Source: an uncultured Victivallaceae bacterium
GTDB lineage: Bacteria; Verrucomicrobiota; Lentisphaeria; Victivallales; GWF2-50-93
Direction: 5' to 3'
DNA length: 64,000 nucleotides
Assembly: GCA_964636325.1 (NCBI GenBank)
Contig: CAZWRV010000019.1
Location: 10,471-74,470 of the forward strand
Part shown: positions 36,031-54,812 of the stretch, in pieces
Layout: each line of letters begins with the position of its first letter
Numbering within the stretch: the stretch's first letter is position 1
Notes under the pieces: generated by a model
Database searches by the model: none
The model's input: the letters and a program-made list of their open reading frames with translations, nothing else
Told to the model about the DNA's origin: nothing
Translations under genes and position numbers: made by a program

Positions 36031-36039
36031 ATAAAAATG

Positions 36040-36079: not shown

Positions 36080-36088
36080 GGAGTGTAA

Positions 36089-39000: not shown

Positions 39001-39598
39001 CGACTTTGAACTCGGCCTCGGTTTCAACCTTGCTGTCCACGGCAAGGGCTTTGACGTCGTAAAGGACACAGATGTCCAGGAGAACCATGTTTTGAGGATA
39101 GTATCAGGCCATCCCTCGCAGAACGTCCTTGTCACGCAGGGGCTTGAGGATATGGCCGATTACGAGCTTTCGTTCAAGTTCCGGATTCCTGCAGTCCCCG
39201 CCGAGGCGGGCAAAGGCGGCCTCCTCCATCTCGGCTACCGCGATTCCGGCAGCCAGCGTTTCTATTTCGGACTGGGATATGAGGCTTGCAAGGACGGCAA
39301 GTCTTCATGGACTGTCTCGAGTCCGGTGATGGTCCTCGACGGCGGCAAGAACGAAGGCTACGGGAAGACCGTAGCGGCCAGCCCGGTCGAAGCTTCTGTG
39401 GACACCGAGTGGCATACGCTCGCCATCAAAGTCCAGGGGCCAAGGCACACGATCGCAATCGACGGGAAAACAGTCTTCGAAGGCGAGGACGAACGCAATC
39501 TCAAAGGCCCGTTCACGATCGCTCCCGGCTGGGGATGGAACAAGACCGAATATGTGGAGATCGACGAGATTTCAGTAAAATCCCTGAAACAGGAGTAG
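36089..39598 (+). CDS. Secreted putative glycoside hydrolase (DUF6067/GH123-like) with C-terminal ConA/LamG-like domain, paralog 3
   Basis: Signal peptide; VWLGAEERGLAWFGD, FVFGLQASPTKP, GIYYDNT, RDYYKRVW; C-terminal DYELSFKFR...WHTLAIKVQG...IDGK. Confidence 0.6.
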   Translation: MKKIFKTAVLSGAALAACFVVQAEEKLSDDDIRWREKIGFNPQVHASVENSSDAEVFARAPYAYYPYSNELEVVFDLAAAVKLLPADSPKPSGGLNSVEVMVFPVVITQEEFAEFAHFYAPNPKVPPDLDKPVACGKIPLDGKGRGHGIFKIPDMPDGNYRVVYEYGGARLTASRTFRRSHFEWERCRYGTEHKVYAPFTPVAVDGNKVSVADRTYAINSFGLFDSVISKGRELLAEPMKLVAEKTDGSRIAWKAGKISGKAVYADLAEFKCSTESEIGTLQSEVSIEEDGCAKIAMTLTPVTRHQTPIRRAWLEIALKETEAPLCHMVGMNSMRHNYAGNVPRGGKITWLNQPWRPARFEVQPFEGETPASYQVWEANNQMHWGGERWNFAPYVWLGAEERGLAWFGDDIGGYSTDGKTSLQRLFIEPGKVVLRVEFIQQPVTLESPRRFVFGLQASPTKPMRPDWRGYSVPGGGGMSVVVWGGFNCADKVPANKDWTIVDKVMEGRKTGKPDFAWFAEYAKTHKTISGSGGAKAGRLHEITLEEAKANGQPWLTALNHFVAREAGAQAGVGTTVYYEEHQTSGNYPDVAEFMDEWSDSSFARYRYFDYPKTWGPECRSANPESYRDFAVFYANEWMKRGVGIYYDNTYPMVDRNPEHFRGRGITWSSSIWGHRDYYKRVWKRSRELMESGASPLPLHTVGHVTNCQVLPYTTWWDATLGVESPGQWQPDKMPSAEEMRKCIEEWSFVILPGPNKDTPGQALPYPPDYLRAMEMGRMAGLIPHYRHLLRSEDAVGGLGISFGATDQGREPELREHRLLSDAAMGIVHEIRGGASGYEHPKIGGLRRSINDFGYGKPGVKVYNYWDEDPFAAKIIGLGNPKVKWLAMTRDGAPFGMILLQSYSPEASSTSLIFPEGKIFIDAETRETFQAGADGSVEIKLPADYGTRLFYVLRNEGAPKLLSKSADTLLLDDFELGLGFNLAVHGKGFDVVKDTDVQENHVLRIVSGHPSQNVLVTQGLEDMADYELSFKFRIPAVPAEAGKGGLLHLGYRDSGSQRFYFGLGYEACKDGKSSWTVSSPVMVLDGGKNEGYGKTVAASPVEASVDTEWHTLAIKVQGPRHTIAIDGKTVFEGEDERNLKGPFTIAPGWGWNKTEYVEIDEISVKSLKQE

Positions 39599-39984: not shown

Positions 39985-41007
39985 TTATTTGTTGAATCCG
40001 GGCTGGCCTTTGGCGGCGTCGACGAACGCCAGGATGTTATCGAGCGGGACGTCTCCTTCGACCGCATGTGCAGGCGCGAAGATATATCCGCCCCTGAGTC
40101 CCTTTTTCAAGAGCTTGTCGCTCTCGTTTCTCACTTCTTCCACGGAGCCCTTCGGGAGGGTCTGCTGGGTTGAAAGGCCCCCGTGGAACGCCAGCCTGCC
40201 GTGATACTTGTCCATCAACGCGAAGACGTCCATGACTTCCGGCTGGAAGGGATTGAAGCAGTTGAGGCCGATTTCTATGAGTTCGTCGAAGAGCTCGTCG
40301 ACGTCGCCGCAGGAATGGATGAAGACTTTCTTGCCTGCGGAGCGGACCTCTCCGTAGGCCCGTGCCAGGTGCGGTTTGATGAAGGTCCGCCAGATCTCCG
40401 GGCCCATCTGGAGTCCGATCTGCTGGCCCCAGTCGTCGCCGAAATAGACGGCGTCGACGTCCAGCTTGACGGCCCTCCTCACAAGTTCGACGTTGAAGTC
40501 GGTGATGCGGCGCAAAAGTTCCTCGACGAAGTCGGGGTGCTCGATGAAGTCCATCATGAGGTTTTCCATTCCTCGGAGAGTCCAGGCGCGTTCGTAGAGC
40601 GAGAATCCGATGGAGTAGACGCGGTATCTTTCCTGCGCGTTTTTTGATTTCAGGCCGTCGACTCCGCCCCAGAAGACCTGATCGTCTGGATCCGGAAATG
40701 AATAGCCGCGCAGTGACGGCTCGGGCAGGACGCAGCCCCTTACGATTCCGATGTCCTTGTCGACGCTCTTGTCCCAGACTACGCCGAAGACGTCCCTGAC
40801 GCAGCCGCCGCCGATGTCCTTGAAGAATCCTACGCCTCCCCCGATCCCGTGGATATGCGGCTGCAGGAAAGGATCAATATCCCTGGTTCCGAAATGTTCC
40901 TGCAGCATTTCCGCCGGCTCCTTGGTGAAAGCGAAGCTCCACGGCGTATAGGGGACGTCCTTCGATTCGACGGCAAGCTTTACTACATCCCTCTTTGGCA
41001 TCTTCAT
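39985..41007 (-). CDS. URO-D/MtaA-CmuA-fold protein (paralog 1, HSCG motif)
   Basis: FGDDWGQQ, KVFIHSCGDV, GGLSTQQTL, GGYIFAPAHAV; RBS GGAGGA. Confidence 0.85.
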   Translation of the reverse strand: MKMPKRDVVKLAVESKDVPYTPWSFAFTKEPAEMLQEHFGTRDIDPFLQPHIHGIGGGVGFFKDIGGGCVRDVFGVVWDKSVDKDIGIVRGCVLPEPSLRGYSFPDPDDQVFWGGVDGLKSKNAQERYRVYSIGFSLYERAWTLRGMENLMMDFIEHPDFVEELLRRITDFNVELVRRAVKLDVDAVYFGDDWGQQIGLQMGPEIWRTFIKPHLARAYGEVRSAGKKVFIHSCGDVDELFDELIEIGLNCFNPFQPEVMDVFALMDKYHGRLAFHGGLSTQQTLPKGSVEEVRNESDKLLKKGLRGGYIFAPAHAVEGDVPLDNILAFVDAAKGQPGFNK

Positions 41008-41149
41008 TGAGTCCTCCTTTTGCATATCTTTCTTATGGCCATTATATCCTTATTGCATCGGAGCCAAGATACTGCTGGAAACGCCGTTCCGGAATGGACA
41101 TAGGGGCTTTAAGCATGGACATTTGTGCAGAATGAGCAATATTATGTCC

Positions 41150-42010
41150 ATGCCGCAGAGTAAAAATGGGAATCTGAAAGTCCTCCTCAACGAGAGCGTG
41201 CAGTCCGCCTTGGACAACTTTTCCGGGTGCTTCGGGGCGAGGATCGCGTATTTCGCCACCGACATGCGCGAGCTCAAGGTCGGTCAGAAGAAGCGGATGT
41301 GCCGCTACTGCTCGCTGATCCGGTCAAGGCTTTACGGCGACGGACGCTGCCTGGAGCAGGACAGGGCCAAGCTGCAAGAGGCCTCGGAGAGGGGGTCGCT
41401 GCTGTCCTACACGTGCCACGGGGGCCTGGTCGAGGCGATAATTCCGGTCTATGCCGACGGCGTACTGATCGGCTTTGTAATGACCGGCCAGTTCCGTACG
41501 GTGTCCGCTCCGCCGAAGGGCGTATTGGATGACTGGACGCGCAGGTTCGGGAAGGCCGCCGAAATAAAATCCGCATTCATGGAAGTCCCCGAAATATCTT
41601 CCGTAAAACTGCCCAGCATGCTCGGGCTCTTCTCGATGCTGGTCCGCTCGATCGCGAAAGAGGGGATTGCCGGGATACAGGGAGACATGCTTGTCGAAAA
41701 GGTGCTGGACAGGATAAGGCGCGATCCTGCGAATCCGCCGACTCTGGCCGAAGCGGCCCGGCTGGCGGGACGCAGCCGCTCGTCGGTGTCCCACGCGTTC
41801 AAGGCCAGGCTTGGAAGATCGTTCAAGTCGTACGTCATAGACATGCGGCTGGCGCGCGCCGAAGAAATACTCTGCAACAGCCCTGGGTCGACAGTCAAGG
41901 AGGCGGCGTCAAGGATCGGATTCCAGGACGAGTTCTATTTCTCCAGGATATTCAGGAAATATCGGGGCTTCCCCCCGTCGGAGCTGGCAAGGCGCGGCCG
42001 GCGTCCTTGA
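41150..42010 (+). CDS. PocR ligand-binding domain + AraC HTH regulator
   Basis: CRYCSLIRS...YTCHGGLVEAIIPV...GFVMTGQF and C-terminal TVKEAASRIGFQDEFYFSRIFRKYRGFPPS. Confidence 0.88.
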   Translation: MPQSKNGNLKVLLNESVQSALDNFSGCFGARIAYFATDMRELKVGQKKRMCRYCSLIRSRLYGDGRCLEQDRAKLQEASERGSLLSYTCHGGLVEAIIPVYADGVLIGFVMTGQFRTVSAPPKGVLDDWTRRFGKAAEIKSAFMEVPEISSVKLPSMLGLFSMLVRSIAKEGIAGIQGDMLVEKVLDRIRRDPANPPTLAEAARLAGRSRSSVSHAFKARLGRSFKSYVIDMRLARAEEILCNSPGSTVKEAASRIGFQDEFYFSRIFRKYRGFPPSELARRGRRP

Positions 42011-42045
42011 GATGCGTTTCAGATATGACACGGACCGCGCGGAAA

Positions 42046-42807
42046 TCAGCGCGCGAAGGACAGGATGAGGATAAACACCGCCAATGCGACCCCAGCAATT
42101 TTCCAGCAGTTCAAGCATTCGCGGTAGATGATGAACAACAGCAGGAGGCCGAATCCCATTCCGATGCCTTGAACCAGAGGGAACACTACTACGGCGGGCA
42201 GACGCATAGATCCTATGAGACTCAGATTGGCGGCCGCGGCGGCGGTGCCGACCGAGAGCCCCCATTTCCATTCAACAGGCTTGATGTCAAGGACAATGCC
42301 GCGCCGGAAGCCTATGAGCAGTTCCACGTAGAATCCGATGCTGAATATCAGCAGCGCGAACTGGGCCGTTCCGACATCAGGCCAGAAAACACCTTTGAGC
42401 TTATAGCCCAGCATCAAAAGTCCGTTGCCCAGGAAAACTGACACAAGTGCGGGCGCCCCACCAATGCCTGCGGCATTAGCCTTCAAGATGCTCTTGTCCG
42501 CCCCCATCCCCTTCCAGGAAGTCCATAGGAGCACGGCGAATGCCGCGATGATCAGCCAATCCGTGGCATGATGCCAGCGCTCCCGGAGCAGCATGGGGGC
42601 AAGGGCGACTGGAACGACAAGGGCCACATTCGCAAGCATCCATACCAGTGAGGGCGGGTAATGCCGATTTGCCGTGATCATGCTGCGCATGACCAGTATG
42701 TAGAGGAATCCCATGGCAGCCGTCAAAAGCCAAAGCGGAGATGTCCCGCTGAACACGTATTCCTTCAAAATGCCGTCATATATTAGCATCAATTGATAAA
42801 GCCACAT
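42046..42807 (-). CDS. DMT/EamA-like membrane protein (N-terminus possibly incomplete)
   Basis: About 8 hydrophobic segments; LPAVVVFPLVQG...IIYRECLNCWKIAGVALAV C-terminus typical of DMT. Confidence 0.6.
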   Translation of the reverse strand: MWLYQLMLIYDGILKEYVFSGTSPLWLLTAAMGFLYILVMRSMITANRHYPPSLVWMLANVALVVPVALAPMLLRERWHHATDWLIIAAFAVLLWTSWKGMGADKSILKANAAGIGGAPALVSVFLGNGLLMLGYKLKGVFWPDVGTAQFALLIFSIGFYVELLIGFRRGIVLDIKPVEWKWGLSVGTAAAAANLSLIGSMRLPAVVVFPLVQGIGMGFGLLLLFIIYRECLNCWKIAGVALAVFILILSFAR

Positions 42808-42820
42808 ACGGATATAATTC

Positions 42821-42845
42821 TTATAAAGCAGTATTATATTATCAT
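42821..42845. promoter_or_regulatory. 25-bp motif shared with 49979-50003 (candidate AraC-type site)
   Basis: TTATAAAGCAGTATTATATTATCAT vs TTATGAAGCAGTGTTATATTATCAT (23/25 identical). Confidence 0.55.
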
Positions 42846-42875
42846 CATTGCAATATAACTAATGGGGCTTCGTCC

Positions 42876-43667
42876 ATGCTTTCATACAGGAATCTGATCA
42901 GGCCGGGGATGTCGGCCAGCGGCGCCATGGGCGACTGGATGCTGGGGATGACCCTCAGGGGGCGCAACCACGAGTTCCATTCCGGCGGCGACTTCTCCCA
43001 GGGCCTGCATGATCTCATCGTCATCAAGGCGAACACGGACCATCGCTGGAAGGTGACGGAGGATGGCGGGCCGTGGGAGGTGATATATTTCATATTCCAT
43101 CCCGGTCCGGCGATGATGCAGCTCTTGAAGCTTCCGGAGATACGGCCTGGGATAATGAGGCTTTCCCTGGCGGGATCCCCGGTCCGGGGTAAAGTGCGTG
43201 CGGCATTGCTTGAGGGGCACAGGGTTCTGAACAGCCACTTGCCTAACCGCGAAAATCTGGCCATGAACTGCCTGGAGAACGCGCTGCTTTGGTGCCAGGC
43301 GGAGATGAACCAGGCGAGGACGCCTGTTGATCCTCGCATCCAGAAGGCCATTGAATATCTGGCGAACAATCTGGGCAGGGCGGTGTATCTTGCCGACGTG
43401 GCCCGTGCGGCGTCATTGTCCACGCCCAGGCTTATGACTCTGTTCAGAAAGCATGCCGGAACCACACCGATGGAATATTTGGAGAGGGAGCGCATGGAAC
43501 GGGCAAGCGAGATGCTCTCGCTCAGTTATCATGCCGTCAAGGAGATCGCGGGACTGGTCGGCTACGGGGACACCGTCCATTTTTCAAAACGCTTCGCCCG
43601 GCGTTTCAAGCTTTCCCCTAAGGCCTATCGCCTGGCGCAGAAACGCAAGATGAAGAAGCCGTCCTGA
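42876..43667 (+). CDS. AraC family transcriptional regulator
   Basis: Cupin-like N-domain (WEVIYFIFHP); LADVARAASLSTPRLMTLFRKHAGTTP...VKEIAGLVGYGDTVHFSKRF. Confidence 0.9.
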   Translation: MLSYRNLIRPGMSASGAMGDWMLGMTLRGRNHEFHSGGDFSQGLHDLIVIKANTDHRWKVTEDGGPWEVIYFIFHPGPAMMQLLKLPEIRPGIMRLSLAGSPVRGKVRAALLEGHRVLNSHLPNRENLAMNCLENALLWCQAEMNQARTPVDPRIQKAIEYLANNLGRAVYLADVARAASLSTPRLMTLFRKHAGTTPMEYLERERMERASEMLSLSYHAVKEIAGLVGYGDTVHFSKRFARRFKLSPKAYRLAQKRKMKKPS

Positions 43668-43705
43668 GCCGCGAGAATATGTTTCCGCTAATTGCCCTCC
43701 GCCTG

Positions 43706-46507
43706 CTATGCGGTTGCCTGGATCATGTGCGATACGGCTGCGTCGGAGAGTGCAAGTCCGGGCTTGAACTGGCCGCCCATCGCATACGCGCACATTTTGG
43801 AGAGCAGATATCGCGCCTCCGGAAATCTCGGAGACAGGTCCAGGCTTGTAAGAATCACGCCCCCTTTTCCAAAGGATCTCTCCAGCAGGTAACCGAGCGG
43901 ATGGCAGACGGGATATCGATGTATGACTCGGATTGCCGGTTCGCCGTTCGCCAGTCCGAACGGCTCCAGTTCGATAGGCGGCGCGTCGTTCATCAACCGG
44001 TAGAACTGCAGATCCGCAAATCCCTCATGCGGAAAATCGCCGAGCATCGGATGCTTGCGGATTACCGTTCCATTCTGGCCATCCTCGTAAGGTGCGTAAT
44101 TCGCGCCGGGCGTGAAGAAATAGCCTTGGCCGCCGCAGCCGTTTCCGCCGTGGGGCCGGACCATCCCTTCGCCTGCGGCCAGGATGACGCGGCCTCCGCC
44201 GCGCATAAATTCCGTCAAGTGATCATCCAGCTTGTCGCTCAATACGACGGAAGTCTTGCAGGGAGGCAGCCCGGCGGCCGTGATAAGCGGGACATCTTTC
44301 CAGTCATGGAGCCAGCCCTGCTCCGGCCTGCCGTAGCGCATGACATTGCGTGGAAGGGTGGCCTCCGGGAAAATCCAAAGATTCCACGAGTTGGTGACGA
44401 TGCGGTGAGCTTCCAAGAGGGACACTTCTAGCCTCGCCGCCTTCGGATAAGCAACTGGAGGAAGCTCAATTCGGATTTCCCCGATCGGATGCGTGCGATA
44501 GGGCTTGTGGGCAAAGGCGGATTCACCTCTGGAAATAATCTTGCCTGCGCAGTTCAGCCGCCATCCGAGGGAGGGCTTCTTCATGGGGGGATGGGAGAAG
44601 TCGGAGACGAAGAACTTGCATTTGAAGTGTGCGCCTCCTGTCAGTACACGGTCTTCGAATGCCAGGCTTGACAGGACAACGGTGTCGCCGTTTGTCTCGA
44701 GCCATGTCTTTGCGTCGGCGATTTTCCGGCAATAAAACTCATCGATGATTCCTTGCGGCGACGGATTGGCGTCCATGGCGTTGAAATGGCTTATTCCGGC
44801 CAGGGTCGGATTGTCGCGGCGGCAGTTCTCCATCTTCGCCTTCGCCTCCAGAAGCTGAAGGCGCTGGCTCCGGTCGGCAAAGTCTGGGAGGCGATGTGCC
44901 AGCCCATGGCGGCCGGCCGCATCCAGGGCGATGTCGATGCAGTATGGACGTATCGCGCCCGAATATTTCTTCCGGATTCGGACGTCTGGGAACGAGCTCC
45001 ACCAGCGGAACTCGTGCTGGATGAGAGGCTTGGGTCGGGAGAGCTTCGTATTGGCTTCCGCATTGACGAAGTCCTCCGGCAGTTCGCCGTTGTGGCCGCC
45101 GTCAGTCCAGATTACCATGGCGGTCGGCTTGATCTCCTTTGTCTCGCGGTAGCACTGCCATGCTGTTCTGGGATAAAATGTTCTGCCTCCGAGCTCGTTG
45201 CTCATGCAGTATATGTTTGCGGAGGGATGGTTGACGTCGCGAAGTACGATTTTGTTCCACTGGCCGCGCAGCGTTTCACGGTTCGACGCCATGGGCTGCG
45301 GCCATGGGTAGACATGCCACGGCGACATTCCGGCCCATGCCCCCAGCATGCCCATCTCGCTCTGGATCAAGAGGCCCATCTCGTCGGCCACGTCAAAATA
45401 TTCCGGGGCGTAGACGTACGACTGGCATCTGACCTGGTTGTAGCCGTATTCGCGCAAGGCCCTGAGCTTGCGCCTCCAGCGTTCGCGGCTGGTGTCCGGG
45501 CATCCTGTTTCAGGGCAGCTGAGGAAATCGCCTGTGCCGCGTATGTAGTAAGGTTCACCGTTGACGAGAAAGTTATTTCCCCGAGCCGCCAGAGTTACAA
45601 AGCCTGTCCTCTCGATCTGGGCGTCAAGGGCTCCTTCCTGCCCGCAAAGTTCGGCCTCGACACGGTAGAGGTTCGGCGTGTCCGGACTCCAGAGGAGCGG
45701 GGAAGAAACTGGCAGGCGGAAATTTATGTCGGCGCCGATGACCGGCCGCTCCACGGCGATTGGATTCACAGCCTTTCCTGTCCCGGGATGGACAGCGAGC
45801 CTTAGCATAAGCTTATTTCTTGCGGAGCCGCCTATTCTTGCGGAGATGCGCAGCTCCTGCCTGTCCACGTCGGGATAGAGGGAGAGCCGTTCCAGGAAGC
45901 ATTCCCCGACGGATGTGATTTCAACTCCGCGATATAGACCTGACCAGCTGCCCTGCCAGTTGTAGGCGAAGCCGAATTCCCGGTTGCGCTCGTGGATGCG
46001 TACGACAAGGTCGTTGCCGCTGCCGGACCTGACGATGCCGGAGATCTCGAAGGCGAAGGGGACAAACGGCAAATCATTGCAGCCAAGATACTTGCCGTTC
46101 AGCCATGCTTCAGCGCTCGGATGCGCACCTCCGAAGTTGAGCCAGAGGCGTCTTCCAGACCAGGTTTCCGGAATCGCGAAAGATTTGGCATACCAGCCCG
46201 TCCCCTTGTATGTGGCGCGGAAAGTCCGTGCCTTCAGCCGGAAGTCCCAGACTTCGTCGTCTGCATCTCCGCCGAATCCCTGTCCCTGCCAGCAACCCGG
46301 CACCTTGATTGACCGCTTGATCGTGTCCGGCCTCCTGAACCACGATTTCTTTATGCCTTCGTCCGCCGGATCCAGCCTGAAGCGCCAGCCGTCCGAAAGG
46401 TTCATCCGCTTTTCCGAAGGATGGAGGAAGAGCGGATTTACACGAACCGGGGATAGCTTCGCGGCCCGGGGAGATTCTTTACTATGCTGTGATTTTCCGG
46501 CCGGCAT
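43706..46507 (-). CDS. Glycoside hydrolase family 2 (cytoplasmic, no signal peptide)
   Basis: LSDGWRFRLDP, IKVPGCWQ, GTGWYAKSF, LWSPDTPNLY, NGEPYYIRG, RDVNHPSANIYCMSNE (acid/base NE). Confidence 0.85.
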   Translation of the reverse strand: MPAGKSQHSKESPRAAKLSPVRVNPLFLHPSEKRMNLSDGWRFRLDPADEGIKKSWFRRPDTIKRSIKVPGCWQGQGFGGDADDEVWDFRLKARTFRATYKGTGWYAKSFAIPETWSGRRLWLNFGGAHPSAEAWLNGKYLGCNDLPFVPFAFEISGIVRSGSGNDLVVRIHERNREFGFAYNWQGSWSGLYRGVEITSVGECFLERLSLYPDVDRQELRISARIGGSARNKLMLRLAVHPGTGKAVNPIAVERPVIGADINFRLPVSSPLLWSPDTPNLYRVEAELCGQEGALDAQIERTGFVTLAARGNNFLVNGEPYYIRGTGDFLSCPETGCPDTSRERWRRKLRALREYGYNQVRCQSYVYAPEYFDVADEMGLLIQSEMGMLGAWAGMSPWHVYPWPQPMASNRETLRGQWNKIVLRDVNHPSANIYCMSNELGGRTFYPRTAWQCYRETKEIKPTAMVIWTDGGHNGELPEDFVNAEANTKLSRPKPLIQHEFRWWSSFPDVRIRKKYSGAIRPYCIDIALDAAGRHGLAHRLPDFADRSQRLQLLEAKAKMENCRRDNPTLAGISHFNAMDANPSPQGIIDEFYCRKIADAKTWLETNGDTVVLSSLAFEDRVLTGGAHFKCKFFVSDFSHPPMKKPSLGWRLNCAGKIISRGESAFAHKPYRTHPIGEIRIELPPVAYPKAARLEVSLLEAHRIVTNSWNLWIFPEATLPRNVMRYGRPEQGWLHDWKDVPLITAAGLPPCKTSVVLSDKLDDHLTEFMRGGGRVILAAGEGMVRPHGGNGCGGQGYFFTPGANYAPYEDGQNGTVIRKHPMLGDFPHEGFADLQFYRLMNDAPPIELEPFGLANGEPAIRVIHRYPVCHPLGYLLERSFGKGGVILTSLDLSPRFPEARYLLSKMCAYAMGGQFKPGLALSDAAVSHMIQATA

Positions 46508-46508
46508 T

Positions 46509-47618
46509 TTATCCTCCTAGAACTTGGCGTTTGATATTCATATAATATTGGAAATCCGCAAATGAGATGTCCGGCGGTATAGCGTGGTCGATCCATGGAA
46601 TGTATCCTCCTCCGCGGATGACTGGTGCGAGCCTGGCGAGTTCCTTGTCAATCGCCTTCGGTCCTTTGGCAATCACTCGCTTGTCGACTCCGCCGACCAT
46701 GCAGAACTTCCTTCCATATTTCTTCCGCATTGCCACGGGATCCATCCCTGCCGCGACCTCCATCGGGTTGAATCCGTCCACGCCCGCCTCGAGGAACAGC
46801 GGGATCAACGCCTCGAAATCCCCGTCAGTGTCTACGATGGCGATCCTTATGCCGCAGTCTTTGAGAAACTTGATGTATCTACGGTAATGGTGGAGAAAAA
46901 ATTCCCCGAAGATGTTCGGGCCGATGAGCGGTCCCCCCTTGCCTGCGAGATCCTCATGTATGATGATGTAGTCGAACCGGACGTCGTTCAGCGCCCTCTC
47001 ATACAGCCTGATGATGTAGTCGCAGAGGAACTCAAGGCAGTCCTTGACGAGGACAGGATCGTCGTAGAACATATATGAGAGACGTTCCGTTCCGATCCAG
47101 GTGCGCAGCATGCTGTAGAATCCGAAGTCGCCCCATATCTGGTTGATGCAGACAGGATTCTCCGAGACGCGCGCTCTTTCCACGAATGAATCCCAGTCAT
47201 TGGGATAACGGGCTTCCAACCCGCCTTCGTAGCGCCTGCGCATCTCCCCGAAGCTTGCACGGTTCTTGACGGCGAAGTCGATGTAGTGGTCCATGCAGAT
47301 GCTCGTATATTTGCCGTCGACCTTCAACCCTTGGCGCGTGCGGCCGAAAGAGTCGATGAAGTAAAGATATTCCGGCGTCTCGCTCAGAATCCTGTGTTCA
47401 AATTGCGGAAGGGGGCCGGACGGATTAATTCCGGTTGCCAGGCATCCGTCCAGGTTGAAATATTTGTTTCCGGCCAGGAAGCATCCGTCGAGATCGGCTG
47501 GAGCGCCTTCGCGGATCCAGCGTTCCCGGGTCTGGCCCCAGAGGCCGATTTCCAGGTTCGGAACCCGGTCCACGGCCTTGAACTGAAGCGTGTTGACAAA
47601 ACGTTCCTTAGGTGTCAT
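46509..47618 (-). CDS. URO-D/MtaA-CmuA-fold protein (paralog 2, DTDG motif)
   Basis: MTPKERF...VDRVP, HEDLAGKGGPLIGP, IVDTDGD, GGVDKR, GGYIPWIDHAIPPDIS. Confidence 0.85.
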   Translation of the reverse strand: MTPKERFVNTLQFKAVDRVPNLEIGLWGQTRERWIREGAPADLDGCFLAGNKYFNLDGCLATGINPSGPLPQFEHRILSETPEYLYFIDSFGRTRQGLKVDGKYTSICMDHYIDFAVKNRASFGEMRRRYEGGLEARYPNDWDSFVERARVSENPVCINQIWGDFGFYSMLRTWIGTERLSYMFYDDPVLVKDCLEFLCDYIIRLYERALNDVRFDYIIIHEDLAGKGGPLIGPNIFGEFFLHHYRRYIKFLKDCGIRIAIVDTDGDFEALIPLFLEAGVDGFNPMEVAAGMDPVAMRKKYGRKFCMVGGVDKRVIAKGPKAIDKELARLAPVIRGGGYIPWIDHAIPPDISFADFQYYMNIKRQVLGG

Positions 47619-47650
47619 AGCAGAACTCCATGCGGTTTATTGTTTTTATG

Positions 47651-47731
47651 GACTGCGCAAGCTTGCTTGCGACCTGTTTTTCGGAGCTTGCGCCGTTGGT
47701 AGCAATTGCGACAAGCAAGCTTGCGCGCTCC
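47651..47731. repeat. REP-like doublet (family D)
   Basis: 15-bp inverted arms GCGCAAGCTTGCTTG (47655-47669) and CAAGCAAGCTTGCGC (47712-47726), with GGACTGCG...CGCGCTCCA ends. Confidence 0.7.
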
Positions 47732-47755
47732 AAGACGAAATTCTATTTCATGTTT

Positions 47756-49870
47756 TCATGTTGCATGGCGCTTGTTGAGTTGTCCGATCTTTCGTCGTGA
47801 AATCAAGACAGACAAGCGTTCTGAATTATCCTTTATCCTGTCCAGGACCGACGGCTTGAACATCCTGATCCATTCCGTGGGCACGTTGCCGGAGCCGGAG
47901 ATTGCGCCTGCGAGCATCGCGGCGCGCCCCGCGTTTGTGTCCGCGTCACGGCCGATGTTGGTGCCGCCTAATGCGGATTTGCTGACGTCGCCCTTGGCTA
48001 TTTTAAGGATGGCGAGCGGCAGACCTACTATCTCCAGATGCGCGGACTGCCACCAGTTGAACATCAGGCATTTTTCATAAAGCTCCTTCCGTGCCTCGAA
48101 GACGTCGTCGTATTTCTCCGCCACATCGATGCATGTCGAAAGATATTCGCGGCAGCTTTTGAAGATCCTTCCGCCGATTGCCCTGAGCTGGTCGGAGCGC
48201 GAAAGCTTCCAGTCTAGCGAGGCGGCAACTAGGGCCGCCTCGCAGACGCTGTCGGCGGTCGCGCCGGGCCTCATGGCCTCAGCGACCGCCGCCGCCAGGA
48301 TGGAAGTCGCAGCGATCTCCACTCCGCGGACGTGCATGTAGGCTATGGCCGGGGCGTCGATCACCGCGTATTCCGGATCGGCGATGTGGTAAAGCCCCAC
48401 GGGCTCTATGCACATCACAGACGTGCCCATCGGATTCCAGTGGCCGCTTATCCGCGGATCCCAGCCATCGGAAATCAGGTCGAAGGAATGTCTGTCGTTG
48501 AACGGCCAGAGGTTCGCCTTGGACCAGTTATTAAGCCAGGTCTCGGCCAGATGCCGGGCCATCACCGGGCGTCCTCCGCGCGAGAGATACGCCTCCAGAA
48601 GCAGCTGCATCTGCTGGTTGTCGTCCTCGCTTTCGAGCCGCTCCGGCTGGAGAATTGTCCGGACTCCGCCCGGATGCTTTGCATCTATCTCCTCATATGT
48701 CCAGCCTTCGACAGGCGAGCCCATGGCGTTGCCGATGGAACTGGCGAGCAGGCAGCCGTAGATCTTGTCCTGGAGGAGGCTGTGCCCGGACTGTCTTTTA
48801 TCGACCAGCGTCTCATGGACGCTTATGATCGCCTTCTCCTTTTTGCGGCGCTTCCCCACGACATGAATTATCGGATGCCATTTGTTCGCGATCGGTTCCG
48901 CCCATGAGAGCCATTCCTCCGGAAATATTTTCCGTCCGGCCATGGCGCCGAGGACGGCTCCGCCAAGGATCGGGGCGCCCATGGGCTCGCGCTCGGGGAG
49001 AGGGCAGAGAAGCAGGGACATGAAGAGCTTCGGATCGCCGAGCATTACATCCTTCAAGAGCGGCAGGACAAAGCGGATCGGGTTCGGCGCCAGCGGGCTT
49101 TTCTCTCGCTGGCTGCACGGGAAACCTTTCAGCCATCGATTGATATGCTCCTCTCTCCTCGGTGTGTCGCTGAAATATCCCCTCGTGGATGCGACGCAGT
49201 ATTCGAGTTCCTGGAAGACGGCCTTGCAGTTCTCCTTGGCGAGATCAAGGACGGCGGAGGCGACCGCTTCAGGAGAATTGTCCGGATCGAAAGCGGATGC
49301 GACCGCGGCGGCGGCAAGACCCGCCCAGTCTGCGCCGAGGCGTGGCTGGCACACGGAGGCGAGTTCCACGCCGTCGAGATATGCGTACTCCGGATCGCAA
49401 TAGTGGTATATCCCGACGGCCGGCATCGCGTCGGCGACGAGGCCGGACGGCACCGTGCCGATTCCGCTGATGCGCGGGTTGCAGCCCTCGCCAAGCAGCT
49501 CCTGGGTCGTGTAGAACAGCATCCAGGCCGTGAAGTTGGAATCCGAGATCTCCTTGCTCCCCCTGAGCGCGCAGGCGAAATCCTCCGGAGTCGCACGTCC
49601 CTGCTTGCCAACATATGCCGCCACGCCGACATCCACAAGCGGCGTCAGCTTCGGGAAGGCGGAACAAGTCGCATATGGACGGCTCTTAAGATATTTTTTC
49701 TCCTCTTGGGCGCTCACCGGCTCAAGCTTCAAGTCCAGCAGGTCTCGCGCGCAGGAGACGGCGCGATACTGCTGAGTCCGCACGTGCCATGTCCAGCCGA
49801 GCTCCGCGCCGATTGCAGCGCCGAGAAGGCATCCTTCGATCCGATCTTTCAAGGTCAAACGTTGTTTCAC
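47756..49870 (-). CDS. Tandem two-domain ADP-ribosylglycohydrolase (DraG/ARH-fold) protein
   Basis: Domain 1 DRIEGCLLGAAIGAELG; domain 2 DKIYGCLLASSIGNAMG, SEDDN, GRDADTNA. Confidence 0.85.
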   Translation of the reverse strand: MKQRLTLKDRIEGCLLGAAIGAELGWTWHVRTQQYRAVSCARDLLDLKLEPVSAQEEKKYLKSRPYATCSAFPKLTPLVDVGVAAYVGKQGRATPEDFACALRGSKEISDSNFTAWMLFYTTQELLGEGCNPRISGIGTVPSGLVADAMPAVGIYHYCDPEYAYLDGVELASVCQPRLGADWAGLAAAAVASAFDPDNSPEAVASAVLDLAKENCKAVFQELEYCVASTRGYFSDTPRREEHINRWLKGFPCSQREKSPLAPNPIRFVLPLLKDVMLGDPKLFMSLLLCPLPEREPMGAPILGGAVLGAMAGRKIFPEEWLSWAEPIANKWHPIIHVVGKRRKKEKAIISVHETLVDKRQSGHSLLQDKIYGCLLASSIGNAMGSPVEGWTYEEIDAKHPGGVRTILQPERLESEDDNQQMQLLLEAYLSRGGRPVMARHLAETWLNNWSKANLWPFNDRHSFDLISDGWDPRISGHWNPMGTSVMCIEPVGLYHIADPEYAVIDAPAIAYMHVRGVEIAATSILAAAVAEAMRPGATADSVCEAALVAASLDWKLSRSDQLRAIGGRIFKSCREYLSTCIDVAEKYDDVFEARKELYEKCLMFNWWQSAHLEIVGLPLAILKIAKGDVSKSALGGTNIGRDADTNAGRAAMLAGAISGSGNVPTEWIRMFKPSVLDRIKDNSERLSVLISRRKIGQLNKRHAT

Positions 49871-50113
49871 CGCATCACCTTCATGTGTTTTATTATCATT
49901 TATATTATTCGGGCGGAGGAATATCCGCGCATGTATAAAACGTATAAGAAGCTTCCTTGATGTCCATGTGTAATCTTATTATGAAGCAGTGTTATATTAT
50001 CATATTTCAGATTTCCTGAGCGTAAGTCTCTACGCGGCGGAAGTTCCCGCCGCCGAGAAGACGGTTGAATAGAATTCAACTCTCCATCCGCCGGTCGGCG
50101 GATATAATAAAAC

Positions 50114-50387
50114 AATCGAATTTCAGAGTAGTGGCTATCTGCGGAGCTCGCAGTATTGTCGATGTGAAACTCGAAGTACGCGCTCGATCCGAGAGCGGCC
50201 TGACATAAAGAATGTCGCACTCGGATCGTGCGACGTACTTGAGGCAAGTTTCAGGAGAGTGCCTCTCCCCGAGCGCGAAACGCCTCGGGGTTCTGTCGGT
50301 CAGAAACTCGAAGTAGCGCAGGTATTCCTACCTGCGGATTGCGCAGACAGGAATGTCTACGCCACTTCGAGGCGAGTTTCAGAGGAG
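50114..50387. repeat. Family C composite element, two tandem units with different internal hairpins
   Basis: GAAACTCGAAGTA at 50166 and 50303; TACTTGAGGCAAGTTTCAG at 50236 and CACTTCGAGGCGAGTTTCAG at 50363; distinct hairpins between the constant blocks. Confidence 0.8.
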
Positions 50388-50413
50388 GTGGCGCCAATAG
50401 GGGAAGAGGCGTT

Positions 50414-51433
50414 TCAGCGACGGCGCAGTTCCTGGAAGCATTCGTCGTAGAAGAGCGCGGCTTCGACGGGGGTGTTGTGCGGTATCATGTTTGTGACGCC
50501 CATGAAGAATCCCGGGCATTGCTTCCCGATCGTCATGCATCTTTCGACCTCCGCGCGGATTTCAGCGCGGTTGCCGCGCAGTAGGATGCGTGTGTCGGCG
50601 TTCCCGATGAAGAAGTGAGTCCTTCCGTAGCGTTCAGCCACCCGGCTCATGTCCGTGAGGGGCTCCATGAAGAATCCGTGAGCGCCGGTGCCGGCGACGT
50701 CGTCGATGAACTCGGTGTAGTCGCCGTCGCTTAGGAACAGCACCTTCTTGCCTGCGTCGATCAGCGGCGCATAGAGCTTCTTCAGGTTCGGGAAGATATA
50801 TTTCCGGTAGAATCCAGGCGCGAATATCGCACCCTCGGTCCAGACTATGTCGTCGTGGCTCGCGATGAGAGGCGCGTCGCATTCGGCCATGGCGTTGTAG
50901 TATTGCTGCATCCAGGAGCCGTAGCGATTGAGGATTTCGCCGAATCCGTCAGGATCCTGTCCGGCCATGGCGAGCAGCATCTCCCACCCGAAGACGTATA
51001 TGCATCCTGTGAGCAAGGTGATGTATGTGCCGGTCGAGCAGGCCGTGTTGGGATTGTCCTCGCAGACTTGGCGGTAATGGTTGTCGAAACGCTCCACCAG
51101 TGAGCGGTGATCCTTTTTCCCGAAAGTCTCCCACGGATCGAAGCGGAGAGCCGTTTCAATATCGACGAATGCCTCGCTTAGCAGAGGCTGGAAATCTACG
51201 GATCCCGCCTCGTATTCGGCGTGGCCCATCTGGGTGCGGCAGGCGGCAAGCTCGTCGGCATGCAGCATGGTCGAAGGAGTAAGATCATAATCCCATGCCT
51301 TGCGGAATGCACGGGAGGCCCGGCCGCGCTCTTCAGGAGGGCTCTCGGGCGTCACATGGATTCCGGTCACAGCCCCGACTAGTTCCCAGTGGCGGTCAGC
51401 ATCGAATTCGACGCGTGCGACTTGGTCCGTCAT
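50414..51433 (-). CDS. URO-D/MtaA-CmuA-fold protein (paralog 3, LSDG motif)
   Basis: HDDIVWTEGAIFAPGFYRKYIFP, KKVLFLSDGDY, GNADTRIL, GFFMGVTNMIPHNTP. Confidence 0.85.
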   Translation of the reverse strand: MTDQVARVEFDADRHWELVGAVTGIHVTPESPPEERGRASRAFRKAWDYDLTPSTMLHADELAACRTQMGHAEYEAGSVDFQPLLSEAFVDIETALRFDPWETFGKKDHRSLVERFDNHYRQVCEDNPNTACSTGTYITLLTGCIYVFGWEMLLAMAGQDPDGFGEILNRYGSWMQQYYNAMAECDAPLIASHDDIVWTEGAIFAPGFYRKYIFPNLKKLYAPLIDAGKKVLFLSDGDYTEFIDDVAGTGAHGFFMEPLTDMSRVAERYGRTHFFIGNADTRILLRGNRAEIRAEVERCMTIGKQCPGFFMGVTNMIPHNTPVEAALFYDECFQELRRR

Positions 51434-51606
51434 CTCAAGGTTTATCGTCGCCCATTGGACATATGCCCCTTACCTTATATTCGATAATTGGTTTTGAATG
51501 TCAGTGAAAAGCTATCTTGCAATATCTGTCTGGCAAGTACGGGGGACGTTTATTCGGTAGGGAATTGCCAAGGGCAGGCTATTCTTAAGAAATGATTTAT
51601 GCAGCA

Positions 51607-53403
51607 TCAGGATTCTAACAGTTCCGGCAGAGGTGACCGGGGTGTTCTCTGTTCGAGCCGAAGGAAGACGCCCCAGGCCTGGCCGGCCAACGATGCGAGC
51701 GCAACCACAAGCTCATGCTCGCCGGCAGATGCCGCGAATTCCACTTTGGCGTCGTCGAACGCTGCAGGCGGGCCGGCTTCGGGATCGCAGAATATTTCGT
51801 GGCCGTCCACCCAGACCTTGACAGGGCCGTCGTAACCGAGCCAGGCGCGGAGCCGGGAGGAACGTGCGCAATTGAACCTGCAGGCATAGTAGACAAGTGC
51901 GTCCTTCGGTTTCTGCGCGCCGCTGCCGGGAGTAGCACCGAACGGGCCTGTGGCATATGCGCCCGAGGGCAGGCCAAACTGCTTGAGCTCCTCATGGCGG
52001 TCGGCGAAAGCGCCGCCGAATTTCCGGTGCGTAAAATCGTGAATCATTTTTTTGCCGGGCGCGGCAAGCGAGCTGATTTCCGCGTATGGTTCGATTTCGC
52101 TTACTCTGAAGACGCGGATGAAATCAGTGAAATGTCCTGCGTTCCTGCGCGAGCTTCTCAGCCAAGGCTGCTTCGGCGGCTTCATTTCGATCTGCCTTAG
52201 CAACCAATAGTTTCGCAGCCACTGGATCTCCTGGACGCCTGTGCTTCTCGCATAGAGATGCACAGTCTCGGGAAGATGATCGTAGTCTTCATATAGGTAA
52301 TGCGTGAAATCCTCCGGCACCCGCTTGAAAAGCGAGAGAATTTCAAATGCCATCTCGAACGCGCCAGGATAACCGAGCGCGGCAAGCCCGCAGATAGGGT
52401 TGTGTTCGAAGTGAGGTCTCTGGCGTCCGCGGTGCCGCGTGGCGAAGAAGGCGAAGCCGAATCCGCGTTCGCGGTCAAATTCCGGATCCACGCCGACCTG
52501 ATCGGGAGTCACGCCGGGCTGATCTCGCTTAATCATTTCCGGTTTAGGATATGTCGATAGCGCAATCTGCGCCTCGGCGAAGGCGCGGTCGAAAAACTCC
52601 ATAGGCAAGTGGCGGGCGAAATCCTTTCCGAGCAATTCGGCCAGGACCGGAAGGTCGCTTCCCCAGTTGAAAGCCCGGAGGATGTGGAACTTCGGATCGC
52701 GGAAACGGGCAAGCTGTCCGTCCAGTTTCTTCCGCCAGAAGGCGCTTCGCGTGCGCCGTGCCGTCCAGGCCGCGGCCGGTAGGAAAAAGCTCATCCCATG
52801 CTGGAAGTCCTGGTTCCACTCGGTCAACATCGTCTTGTAGTAGAAATAAGTGAATCCCTGGTCGGCATACCATTTCAGAGTCTGTTCTACCAAGGTGTCG
52901 ATCTCGGTCTGGGTCGCCTTGTCCGCATGTGGACGAAACAGATATAATCCGGATAGCATCGGGCTCGCCTGGTCGGTACCGAGCGGTTCGAGGAACTGGT
53001 GCATCAGCGTCTCCAGTCCGCCTTTCCAGCCGCCGTAGGGACGCAGGAACGAGCCGATGCCGTGGATCTGCGAGGCCGAATATATGCGGCGCAGAGTCTG
53101 CCAGAGTGACCGGCAGCGCTCGACGCAGCGCGCATCTCCTATGACCGCATGCTGGCGCATGAGCGCGTCCATGTAGAGCCCCATGGCCATGACGCTGTCC
53201 TCGTATGTCCAGAAGGCCCAGGGGTCTATGTCGGCGCGGCGCGGGACTTTTATCGGCGTTATGAAGTCGGGCTCGAACGGACGGCCGGTGCTCGAGTCGA
53301 TCGCCGACATCATGAACCCTTCCGGATCGAACAGATGCTCTTCGACGTAGCGGCCAGCGGACTGCGCGGTGGCCCCGCAGCGTGATTCGACGCAGTTCTT
53401 CAT
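51607..53403 (-). CDS. Hypothetical cytoplasmic protein, helical N-domain + C-terminal PA14/CBM-like beta-sandwich
   Basis: Long ORF with RBS GGA. The C-terminus YYACRF...LRAWLGYDGPVKVWVDGHEIF...VEFAASAGEHELVV is PA14-like. Confidence 0.6.
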   Translation of the reverse strand: MKNCVESRCGATAQSAGRYVEEHLFDPEGFMMSAIDSSTGRPFEPDFITPIKVPRRADIDPWAFWTYEDSVMAMGLYMDALMRQHAVIGDARCVERCRSLWQTLRRIYSASQIHGIGSFLRPYGGWKGGLETLMHQFLEPLGTDQASPMLSGLYLFRPHADKATQTEIDTLVEQTLKWYADQGFTYFYYKTMLTEWNQDFQHGMSFFLPAAAWTARRTRSAFWRKKLDGQLARFRDPKFHILRAFNWGSDLPVLAELLGKDFARHLPMEFFDRAFAEAQIALSTYPKPEMIKRDQPGVTPDQVGVDPEFDRERGFGFAFFATRHRGRQRPHFEHNPICGLAALGYPGAFEMAFEILSLFKRVPEDFTHYLYEDYDHLPETVHLYARSTGVQEIQWLRNYWLLRQIEMKPPKQPWLRSSRRNAGHFTDFIRVFRVSEIEPYAEISSLAAPGKKMIHDFTHRKFGGAFADRHEELKQFGLPSGAYATGPFGATPGSGAQKPKDALVYYACRFNCARSSRLRAWLGYDGPVKVWVDGHEIFCDPEAGPPAAFDDAKVEFAASAGEHELVVALASLAGQAWGVFLRLEQRTPRSPLPELLES

Positions 53404-53440: not shown

Positions 53441-54153
53441 CTATTTCAATCGGGCCAGCTCAGCCCTGATTTTCATTGAGAGTCCTGCGATGTCATCCTT
53501 TCTGAGGTAGTCGCCTAGAGAATTCCCTATGTCCTTGTCAGAAATAACTTGAACTTTTGCCCTGAGAAAATCGAAGAATTGTTCGACGCCTGAGCCCTTG
53601 AAATAGTCTTCCTTGCGCACGAGTTTTGAGTAGCTGGGCTTTTTCAAGCGGCCCATCAGCGTTTTTATGTCCGGCCTAATTCCCATCCTAAGATAAAACC
53701 AGATGTCATAAATATCCCTAATCAGACGGCGTTCGTTCCACGCGGCCATCTTGTTGGATAGCGAAACTGACAAGTCTACGACCGGTATCAGGCGCGGAGG
53801 AAGATCATATTTTGCCGCCAGTTCCTTGTTAGAAACTATCTGGACCGGCACATCCATGGCGACCTTCGCCTCGATTTGTATTTTGGAGCCGCCAGCCTCC
53901 AAGGCGATCCGGAGGCATTTCGAGTTTAGCGAGTAATCAAGCTTGGCCCCTCCGATTTCTTCAAGCGCAGAAAGGATGTCCTTGACTATATCCTTCTTGG
54001 AATTGAATGGCACGAAGACATAGTCAAGATCATTCGTCATGCGCTCGCAGCCGAGGAACTGAGCGACATCCCGCCGCGCAGAACCGCCTTTCTGGCAAAC
54101 TTCCGTGCAAAGATGTCCATCACCTTGGCAAGCAAAGCCTCTTCCTTGATCAT
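53441..54153 (-). pseudogene. AbiEii/nucleotidyltransferase type IV toxin with 1-bp frameshift near 54059
   Basis: ATG at 54153 overlaps the antitoxin stop (ATGA). It reads MIKEEALLAKVMDIFARKFARKAVLRGGMSL, then continues in a shifted frame as FLGCERMTNDLDY...NKMAAWNERRLIRDIYD. Confidence 0.85.
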
Positions 54154-54740
54154 AAGCTCCAGACCTTCCTGAAGAATGAGACAAATCGCCGGTCATATTT
54201 TTTAAGATAATCCGATATCTTGCCGGGCTTGAGCATGGAGATACTGACATCGCTCTCCGGATCGAAAGAGAAACTCCTGCCCTTGAAATAAAAGTAGCAG
54301 ACATCAAGGAAGGCCTTCTCTGGTGTGGCATATTTGATCCCTTTGACGGTTTCAAAACCGAAAAAAAGGCGGGGGGTTATGCTGAGATGCTCGATGATCC
54401 CCATCTCGCAATTATAAGTTCTGGGCCGCCCGACTTTAACCGCCTGGATCCTGCGGGCTGGGATCGAACCAATGACAGCCTTTGCCGCCAGCACCGTTCC
54501 AGTGGAAACATATGAGTCGGGATTGATACGCGAACTTATTGCCTCAAGCGAAGTTCCCGGCAAAGCATAAATTCCCCGCTTGACCCTGACCAGCACCTTT
54601 TCCTTGACCGCCGATTCAAGCTTCTTGAAGAGTGCAGCCTCGCTCTGGCCGCCAAAGATGACCTTCAGGTCAGGCATGGCCAGCACTCCGCCGAGTTCCG
54701 AAGCCCACTTTTCGATATCTTTTGTATCAGATGCTTTCAT
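54150..54740 (-). CDS. AbiEi-type type IV antitoxin (wHTH)
   Basis: LVRVKRGIYAL...INPDSYVS...ATPEKAFLDVCY. Confidence 0.85.
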   Translation of the reverse strand: MKASDTKDIEKWASELGGVLAMPDLKVIFGGQSEAALFKKLESAVKEKVLVRVKRGIYALPGTSLEAISSRINPDSYVSTGTVLAAKAVIGSIPARRIQAVKVGRPRTYNCEMGIIEHLSITPRLFFGFETVKGIKYATPEKAFLDVCYFYFKGRSFSFDPESDVSISMLKPGKISDYLKKYDRRFVSFFRKVWSL

Positions 54741-54776: not shown

Positions 54777-54812
54777 TATATCAACGCGATAAAGCGTGAA
54801 TCTCTTGCCGGG

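Follow-up and report, generated by a model that had tools for sequence, protein, structure and literature searches.

A cytoplasmic gene cluster joining a tandem ADP-ribosylglycohydrolase-fold protein, uroporphyrinogen decarboxylase-fold proteins and a family 2 glycosidase in an uncultured Victivallaceae bacterium

Results

Gene content of the locus

We analyzed a stretch of 64,000 nucleotides from an uncultured Victivallaceae bacterium (assembly GCA_964636325.1, contig CAZWRV010000019.1, positions 10,471 to 74,470 of the forward strand). The whole stretch is called the window, and all positions below are counted in it unless a related locus is named. The subject of this study is a gene cluster at positions 39985-53403. 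It encodes three proteins of the uroporphyrinogen decarboxylase (URO-D) fold, a protein with two fused ADP-ribosylglycohydrolase (ARH) domains designated as ARH2x, a glycoside hydrolase of family 2 (GH2), a membrane protein designated as TM253, a protein designated as UNK598, and two AraC-family regulators. The genes and their coordinates had been listed in a sequence-only reading of the same DNA, and they were borne out by Pfam and NCBIfam scans. As shown in Table 1, all three URO-D proteins passed the gathering cut-off of PF01208, which is 23.9 bits. The single base pair between the stop codon of URO-D2 and the start of GH2 was found as claimed. The same reading held that the enzymes lack signal peptides, and no N-terminal hydrophobic segment was present in any of them, unlike the giant GH123_N-like proteins encoded upstream, which have one. 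The enzymes of the locus are therefore cytoplasmic.

Table 1. Genes and features of the locus, with their positions in the window
Feature	Position	Strand	Family evidence and remarks
UNK598	51607-53403	-	No Pfam match
URO-D3	50414-51433	-	PF01208, E 4.6e-19, 69.1 bits
AT-rich intergenic region, 5' of ARH2x	49871-50413	-	No Rfam family matched; holds a hairpin
ARH2x, 704 amino acids (aa), fused tandem ARH	47756-49870	-	PF03747 in two stretches, 115.3 bits
URO-D2	46509-47618	-	PF01208, E 1.2e-12, 47.9 bits
GH2, 933 aa	43706-46507	-	Three GH2 Pfam domains above cut-off
AraC-family regulator	42876-43667	+	Pfam/NCBIfam; divergent from TM253, convergent with GH2
TM253, polytopic membrane protein	42046-42807	-	About 7 hydrophobic segments; no Pfam match
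PocR-sensor AraC-family regulator	41123-42010	+	Pfam/NCBIfam; divergent from URO-D1
URO-D1	39985-41025	-	PF01208, 95.4 bits

The gene order from ARH2x to URO-D1 was seen again in L001, a Logan assembly made independently from the same organism. The sequence was carried by runs of hot-spring and microbial-mat metagenomes; the matching runs were all DNA, and no RNA run with this sequence was found among them. The nearest relatives of the locus proteins were encoded in metagenome-assembled genomes (MAGs) of Verrucomicrobiota, Kiritimatiellae and Lentisphaerae. A 540-bp AT-rich gap with a terminator-like hairpin (50234-50214) separates URO-D3 from ARH2x. Because of this gap and hairpin, the five minus-strand genes probably form two transcription units, and ARH2x-URO-D2-GH2 is probably an operon of its own, with its promoter probably in the intergenic region. 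Terminator-like sites were no commoner than expected from shuffled sequence, so the hairpin is weak evidence for this split. In an Rfam scan for riboswitches, no family was matched except one tRNA.

Conserved linkage of ARH2x, URO-D2 and GH2

The genes of the locus had been described as parts of a single system. In this study, we found that the sole recurrent neighbor of ARH2x across 85 loci is a URO-D-fold gene. Among the 45 loci that were testable, defined as those with at least 1.3 kb of flank on each side, a URO-D gene was directly adjacent to ARH2x on the same strand in 17 (38%), with gaps of 13-265 bp, and it lay within 10 kb in 24. The usual partners belong to two subgroups of the URO-D2 clade, which are 45% (L086a) and 36% (L086b) identical to URO-D2, and 21 of the 26 proteins of the first subgroup are encoded no more than two genes away from ARH2x. 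The order URO-D, ARH2x, URO-D that is seen in the window was also present in some other loci.

A GH2 ortholog (48-63% identity) was found on the same strand and within 10 kb of a URO-D2 ortholog in 12 of the 21 genome loci. Where both flanks reached 2.5 kb or more, which was so in 11 loci, it was no more than 4.1 kb away in 9. The window GH2 falls with these orthologs into an orthogroup of its own, which is tied to URO-D2. The second frequent partner of URO-D2 was a DUF6259 protein of about 830 aa (7 loci). Homologs of TM253 (44-47% identity) adjoin URO-D2, GH2 or ARH2x in three loci (L014, L017 and L092), and in one Gemmatimonadota and one Latescibacterota MAG they adjoin URO-D2 and GH2. The gene order was GH2-URO-D2-TM253-ARH2x in L092 and SDR-URO-D2-ARH2x-GH2 in L004. 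Among the named matches and genome loci, the phyla and classes represented were Kiritimatiellae/Verrucomicrobiota, Lentisphaerae, Armatimonadota, Planctomycetota, Gemmatimonadota, Latescibacterota, Omnitrophota and Actinomycetota; the metagenome contigs come without a taxonomic assignment.

In 165 URO-D2 and ARH loci, tblastn gave no match for UNK598 and weak matches only for URO-D3. Because URO-D3 and UNK598 are not conserved with the other genes, we read the locus as a conserved core (ARH2x, URO-D2 and GH2, probably with TM253 and an AraC regulator) flanked by two related, separable modules. URO-D3 with UNK598, and URO-D1 with the PocR regulator, are neighboring modules of the same broad kind that are not obligatory to the core. 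A single system of eight genes did not hold up, as the conserved linkage was limited to ARH2x, URO-D2, GH2 and probably TM253 (L004, L092, L014 and L017). AraC genes recur beside ARH2x and URO-D loci, and an AraC-type regulator likely controls the core.

Carbohydrate context of the related loci

A carbohydrate context was observed in every related locus examined. Genes of cytoplasmic glycoside catabolism near the URO-D2 clade and ARH2x were those for GH2, GH4, GH29, GH36, GH38, DUF6259, DUF4838, apiosidase-like proteins and sulfatases. Genes of sugar metabolism were also found there, namely xylose-isomerase-type TIM barrels, GFO/IDH/MocA oxidoreductases and FGGY kinases, and further neighbors included class-II aldolases, DegT and class-III aminotransferases, Amidohydro_2 pairs and AraC regulators. 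The sequence-only reading proposed that the enzymes process sugar conjugates by undescribed chemistry, and the substrates that it named, which are O-methyl, ADP-ribosyl or uronic conjugates, all remain candidates. Conserved neighborhoods were found and the idea is not refuted on that count; they point to cytoplasmic processing of sugars or glycosides beside glycosidases, and what fell away was the unity of the system.

An Amidohydro_2 pair lies beside the closest relatives of ARH2x, which are 65-74% identical (L004 5833-10004, L082 7208-9941 and L089 2385-3955). It is accompanied by an aminotransferase of class III or DegT type in L004 and L082. This module is not in the window, and its content hints at an amino-sugar, keto-sugar or lactone step.

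Active-site residues of URO-D2

The URO-D2 family gave 745 word-filtered matches, the best 120 of which were 49-75% identical and spread across phyla. The AlphaFold2 model of URO-D2 had a predicted local distance difference test score (pLDDT) of 93.5, and the best Foldseek matches of this model were HemE, MtaA and MetE, with TM 0.53-0.64 and 12-16% identity. According to the model, URO-D2 is a URO-D-fold TIM barrel, and it belongs to a clade with a DxDG motif, which was present in 88 of 90 members. In a profile alignment to Methanosarcina mazei MtaA (4AY7), Asp263 and Asp265 of URO-D2 occupy the positions of His and Cys in the zinc motif HxCG, and H345 falls on the His of 'GHG' in HemE. In 82 clade members, 17 polar residues of URO-D2 were conserved in at least 85%; the conserved set includes R137, R172, E222, D223, Y245, D263, D265, E287, D293, D312, K313, R314, D344 and H345. 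The acidic residues follow five successive barrel strands, in the motifs HED, DTD, PxE, GGVDKR and IDH. These alignments suggest that the carboxylate-rich site of URO-D2 probably binds a metal, and that it may stand in for the zinc-thiolate site of the corrinoid methyltransferases.

The claim that the URO-D proteins are not ordinary MtaA/CmuA or HemE enzymes was confirmed, since the model cut-offs were missed widely and the zinc ligands of URO-D2 are replaced. Against the MtaA/CmuA models (TIGR01463, NF004889 and NF040654), URO-D1, URO-D2 and URO-D3 reached 80.3, 33.9 and 41.4 bits, where the cut-offs are 235-400, or 235-600 when the comparison covers MtaA, MtbA and CmuA. Against the HemE model TIGR01464, URO-D1 scored 28.3 bits (cut-off 302.95), and URO-D2 and URO-D3 had no match. 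The URO-D proteins share with MtaA, MtbA and CmuA the TIM-barrel fold and an N-terminal motif of the 'R..AL....DRVP' type, but the zinc His and Cys are replaced in URO-D2 and URO-D3, no corrinoid protein or activator is encoded nearby, and the context is that of glycans rather than of one-carbon (C1) metabolism. HemE is among the best structural matches of URO-D2, but its arginine motif of the 'MRQAGR' type is absent. No heme-biosynthesis gene was found among the scanned open reading frames (ORFs) of the window.

Active-site residues of ARH2x

ARH2x belongs to a family of proteins of about 690 aa that are 45-74% identical across phyla (300 matches among the 8000 candidates scored). Its place in PF03747 is supported by a domain score above the cut-off and by the metal and catalytic residues of its C-terminal domain. 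Invariant in this domain are E388, D416/D417 and D642/D644/T645, which line up with the motifs for metal binding and catalysis in DraG and Tri1. The Asp in the first motif of ARH enzymes is an invariant Asn in the ARH2x family. The N-terminal ARH copy is without the DxDT motif, and this domain is probably non-catalytic.

ARH2x is very distant from every solved ARH member (E about 1e-6), and it scored 31 and 22.6 bits against the DraG and ADP-ribosylarginine hydrolase equivalog models, compared to cut-offs of 337 and 490. The C-terminal domain shares with DraG, ARH1, ARH3 and Tri1 the PF03747 fold, the Glu of GxAxGxPxE, the DD pair and DxDT. Unlike these enzymes, ARH2x joins two ARH copies in a single protein, the N-terminal one degenerate, and its linkage is to URO-D and glycan genes rather than to those for nitrogenase, toxins or ADP-ribosyltransferases.

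GH2, TM253 and UNK598

The N-terminal, immunoglobulin-like and TIM-barrel domains of GH2 were all detected. The nearest solved relative was 8U01 (E 2.4e-52), a beta-galactosidase of subfamily GH2_20, and GH2 matched the model of GH2_20 exo-beta-1,4-galactosidases (NF049890) with E 2e-77 and 261 bits, missing the equivalog cut-off of 1500. The NE and HE(F/Y)xWW motifs were invariant, as were N437-E438 and E499 in 12 orthologs; by its position in the motif, E499 is the predicted nucleophile. GH2 is a putative exo-glycosidase of a beta-galactosidase-like kind. It shares domains and catalytic motifs with GH2_20 beta-galactosidases of the BT4151/BT4156 type, but it is cytoplasmic.

TM253 had been labeled a transporter of the DMT type. 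This label was not supported, because no Pfam, NCBIfam or PDB match was obtained even at lax thresholds, and about 7 hydrophobic segments were counted where such transporters have 10 transmembrane helices in a duplicated topology. TM253 is probably the importer. Its homolog in L092 (9106-9960) has an extra first transmembrane helix of about 35 residues, which is absent from the window protein. The distance from TM253 to the divergent AraC gene is 68 bp.

UNK598 had been described as a helical protein with a PA14 domain. At the level of the fold, the AlphaFold2 model and Foldseek agree with this description, and no Pfam sequence match was obtained. The model had a mean pLDDT of 82.5 and showed a barrel of the (alpha/alpha)6 type followed by a C-terminal beta-sandwich. 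For the C-terminal region, parts of which were modeled with low confidence, Foldseek gave matches to PA14 domains from GH31 and GH3 enzymes and to CBM35 (E 1e-4 to 5e-3). UNK598 is like the barrels of AGE/cellobiose-2-epimerase-like, GH88 and GH9 proteins with PA14 or CBM35 in fold (TMt 0.48-0.53; 3WKF and 8H1L), but at the sequence level it matched nothing in Pfam or the PDB. Relatives of UNK598 sit in other glycan loci with a sulfatase, GH42, GH20 or DUF4838. UNK598 is an accessory gene outside the conserved core.

URO-D1 and URO-D3

URO-D1 keeps the HxC part of the zinc site, in an HxCG motif. It was the closest of the three to the MtaA/CmuA-like models, yet far under their cut-offs, and it is a separate His-x-Cys paralog with its own divergent PocR regulator. 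Paralogs of the HxCG type recur in about 9 related loci.

URO-D3 has Leu-Ser-Asp at the positions of the zinc His-x-Cys of MtaA, and its relatives have Ser in place of the Leu. The URO-D3 family is smaller than that of URO-D2, with 86 representatives at E 1e-30 or better, and its motifs (HDD, SDG(D/N), GNAD.R and GNHIP) are analogous to those of URO-D2. Relatives of URO-D3 pair with a URO-D protein of the HxCG or HxDG type beside an AraC regulator, and an operon with such a relative in L170 also holds GH29 fucosidases and an ABC sugar transporter. In the region 51374-51523 (minus strand), a stop codon occupies the position at which the homologs of URO-D3 start, so that the window protein is 13 residues shorter at its N-terminus, and near residue 318 it has Asn-Met in place of the Asn-His of the GNHIP motif. 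It may be a decaying or altered copy.

Several URO-D loci also encode a 429-aa protein of a family that is not matched by Pfam and has an invariant YYGCCEP motif (L170 at 9077-10363, L071, L125, L080, L054, L132 and L028). This family is a remote relative of the URO-D fold (hhalign 95%, E 3e-8 against the URO-D2 family), and it is not in the window.

Search for a corrinoid partner

The locus had been claimed to have no corrinoid partner, and none was found in the scanned window ORFs or in about 170 related loci. No B12-binding methyl carrier of the MtaC type was found among these ORFs or in the Pfam-annotated related loci. When 1672 ORFs from about 167 loci were searched for the canonical DxHxxG..SxL..GG motif, 8 loose matches came up, and by Pfam not one of them was B12-binding. 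An activating enzyme for a corrinoid protein was not seen near the locus or in the related loci.

Two other genes of the window bear on cobalamin. The sole B12-binding Pfam match among the scanned window ORFs was a radical SAM gene far from the locus (2763-4121, minus strand). A gene for a 372-aa protein of the reductive-dehalogenase/QueG superfamily lies at 33860-34978 on the plus strand (PceA 4UQU, E 6e-12; also NpRdhA and QueG); members of this superfamily are cobalamin and Fe-S enzymes. The end of this gene shares 4 bp with a weak peptidase-U32-like ORF, and the pair (33860-36030, plus strand) is set between the secreted GH123_N-like giants and looks out of place in a glycan locus. Neither the radical SAM gene nor the QueG-like gene is in a methyl-carrier family. 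Salvage of cobamide, queuosine or tetrapyrrole was considered and rejected: QueG near ARH2x in two lineages was judged to be inherited synteny, and cobamide genes were not recurrent.

Surroundings of the locus

Three very large secreted GH123_N-like proteins of 1169, 1310 and 1169 aa are encoded at 19726-39598 on the plus strand, and the last of them has a C-terminus like that of 3-keto-disaccharide hydrolases. Alongside these giants are genes for a LacI-type regulator, a HEAT-repeat protein, a 596-aa protein with no assigned function and a prepilin-type N-methyl protein. This region is probably the extracellular arm of a glycan-degradation region.

On the other side, an AbiEi (54150-54740)/AbiEii (53441-54355) toxin-antitoxin pair and a PIN-domain gene (54813-55226), all on the minus strand, lie directly next to UNK598. 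They mark the edge of the sugar locus, and promoter-like sites cluster at about 54740-54780. A reading of the locus as a defense system was rejected, as the AbiEi/AbiEii pair was the only PADLOC match, and neither ARH2x nor any URO-D protein was matched by a PADLOC model. Elsewhere in the window, an ORF of 250 aa (16636-17388, minus strand) covers only positions 1-182 of 416 in the FAD_oxidored model and may be a truncated gene.

Discussion

The glycan-related neighbors, together with the negative results for corrinoid proteins, Rfam families and PADLOC models, lead us to read the locus as a system for the cytoplasmic processing of an imported glycoside. In this reading, to which we give a probability of roughly 45%, a glycoside or small oligosaccharide would be broken down in the cytoplasm by the core operon ARH2x-URO-D2-GH2, using undescribed chemistry of the ARH and URO-D folds. 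We infer the substrate, the order of the steps and the chemistry as follows. The substrate would be imported by TM253, and a terminal residue of the beta-galactoside type would be taken off by GH2. The C-terminal domain of ARH2x would then cut a further glycosidic bond, one of ribosyl or furanosyl type, at a two-metal site like that of ARH enzymes. Finally, URO-D2 would convert the freed sugar or strip a substituent from it, at the carboxylate-rich and probably metal-binding site formed by E222/D223, D263/D265, E287, D312/K313/R314 and D344/H345.

A more specific and more doubtful form of this proposal is that the tandem ARH and the DxDG URO-D proteins represent two new classes of carbohydrate-active enzymes, paired in the cytoplasm of bacteria from many environmental phyla. 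ARH2x would be an ARH-fold furanosyl or ribosyl glycosidase, and URO-D2 would be a URO-D-fold enzyme that removes a substituent such as O-methyl, or rearranges the sugar, without a corrinoid carrier protein.

Several points weigh against the reading as glycoside processing. Roughly half of the ARH2x loci lack a URO-D gene within 10 kb, and a GH2 is missing from most of them, so the three enzymes are not an obligate trio. Loci of related lineages are non-independent samples. The ORFs of the related loci came from a crude greedy caller, which gave spurious antisense ORFs in high-GC loci, and those clusters were excluded by hand. The metal site of URO-D2 is proposed from alignment only, and a substrate with a phosphate, nucleotide or carboxylate group would suit the same Arg- and Lys-rich site just as well. 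To our knowledge, ARH-fold enzymes act on ADP-ribose conjugates only, and a role on free glycans has no precedent. In the open literature, nothing relevant was found on URO-D-like or ARH-like sugar enzymes, nor any paper giving a function to either subfamily.

An alternative that we consider unlikely is corrinoid-dependent, ether-cleaving methyl transfer on O-methyl sugars released by the glycosidases. The DxDG- or SDG-type URO-D proteins would act as methyltransferase I (MT I) and URO-D1 as methyltransferase II (MT II), with the carrier and activator encoded elsewhere or free cobamide used in their place. MT I of the O-demethylases of acetogens has carboxylate and His ligands to zinc, which would agree with this role. 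HxCG-type paralogs recur together with those of the DxDG or SDG type, and URO-D partners stand beside many exo-glycosidases (GH2, GH4, GH29, GH36 and GH38), as expected if a common substituent were removed. It is also in favor of demethylation that the methyltransferases of O-, S- and halogen-demethylases belong to the UroD superfamily (PMC10418091), and that methylated sugars block catabolism, the sole demethylases described for them being oxygen-dependent P450s (PMC6292453). The corrinoid O-demethylases of acetogens and Desulfitobacterium, composed of MT I, a corrinoid protein, MT II and an activator, likewise have several UroD paralogs of different active-site types in one locus. However, the carrier and the activating enzyme of these systems were not found here or in the related loci, the negative motif search included, and their known substrates are aryl methyl ethers; the mlp gene clusters (PMC10418091) are a different, corrinoid-containing system. 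Moreover, HxCG partners were present in only about 9 loci, and the tightly linked ARH2x would be left without a role. The module families also occur in phyla with many aerobes, such as Gemmatimonadota and Armatimonadota, which speaks against demethylation of this kind.

Somewhat less probable again is an anionic ribosyl substrate, such as ADP-ribose, a nucleotide-sugar conjugate or another 5-phosphoribosyl derivative; the glycosidases would then be only loosely tied to the module. ARH2x would free the ribosyl group, and URO-D2 would act on the phosphorylated or carboxylated product. ARH2x keeps every residue matched to the DraG and Tri1 motifs for metal binding and catalysis, R137, R172, K313 and R314 are conserved in URO-D2, and GH2 is missing from most ARH2x-URO-D pairs. 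Aminotransferases of the DegT type, for which nucleotide sugars are common substrates, are recurrent neighbors. On the other hand, no recurrent NUDIX, nucleotidase, ADP-ribosyltransferase or nucleoside transporter genes were found in the neighborhood, and the neighbors were overwhelmingly glycan-related. The Asn that replaces the first-motif Asp of ARH and the lack of a PADLOC match for ARH2x and the three URO-D proteins also argue against a ribosyl substrate.

We give slightly less credit still to the possibility that the DxDG URO-D proteins form a new kind of glycoside hydrolase, phosphorylase or lyase in their own right and act on a heteroglycan fragment in succession with GH2 and ARH2x. 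Their acidic residues lie after five successive strands, at the C-terminal strand ends, their partners are exo-glycosidases of many families, and Foldseek weakly matched GH156, a chitinase and sugar isomerases. However, the matches to glycosidase folds were weak (E about 1e-3) and typical of TIM barrels generally, and we know of no glycosidase with the URO-D fold. It is very improbable that there is no functional link and that the genes are chance neighbors in a glycan-rich genome with abundant URO-D paralogs: the lack of conservation of UNK598 and URO-D3 with the core, the heterogeneous neighborhoods beyond the pair and the half of ARH2x loci without a URO-D gene would fit chance, but same-strand adjacency in 38% of testable loci with gaps down to 13 bp lies far above a generous URO-D background, which was estimated and not measured, and GH2-URO-D2 adjacency occurs in several phyla with differing gene orders.

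Returning to the reading as cytoplasmic glycoside processing, the folds involved are known, and the pairing of ARH with URO-D, the active-site variant and the context are new. No paper in the open literature was found that holds both 'ADP-ribosylglycohydrolase' and 'uroporphyrinogen decarboxylase', or that mentions DUF6259. The ARH fold is known for reversing ADP-ribosylation, and the URO-D fold for heme synthesis and for corrinoid- and zinc-dependent alkyl transfer; the conserved pairing fits neither. Both families are large, and their members occur in the principal uncultured phyla that degrade glycans in sediments, soils, hot springs and digesters. The reaction, once worked out, could add enzyme classes to carbohydrate catabolism, and thousands of misleading annotations as 'uroporphyrinogen decarboxylase' or 'ADP-ribosylglycohydrolase' would be corrected. 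It might also explain how anaerobes handle decorated sugars. If the tandem ARH and the DxDG URO-D proteins are indeed two new enzyme classes, both folds would leave the chemistry of ADP-ribose and of tetrapyrroles and C1 units, and they might provide an oxygen-independent route, so far missing, for sugars that are methylated or blocked in other ways.

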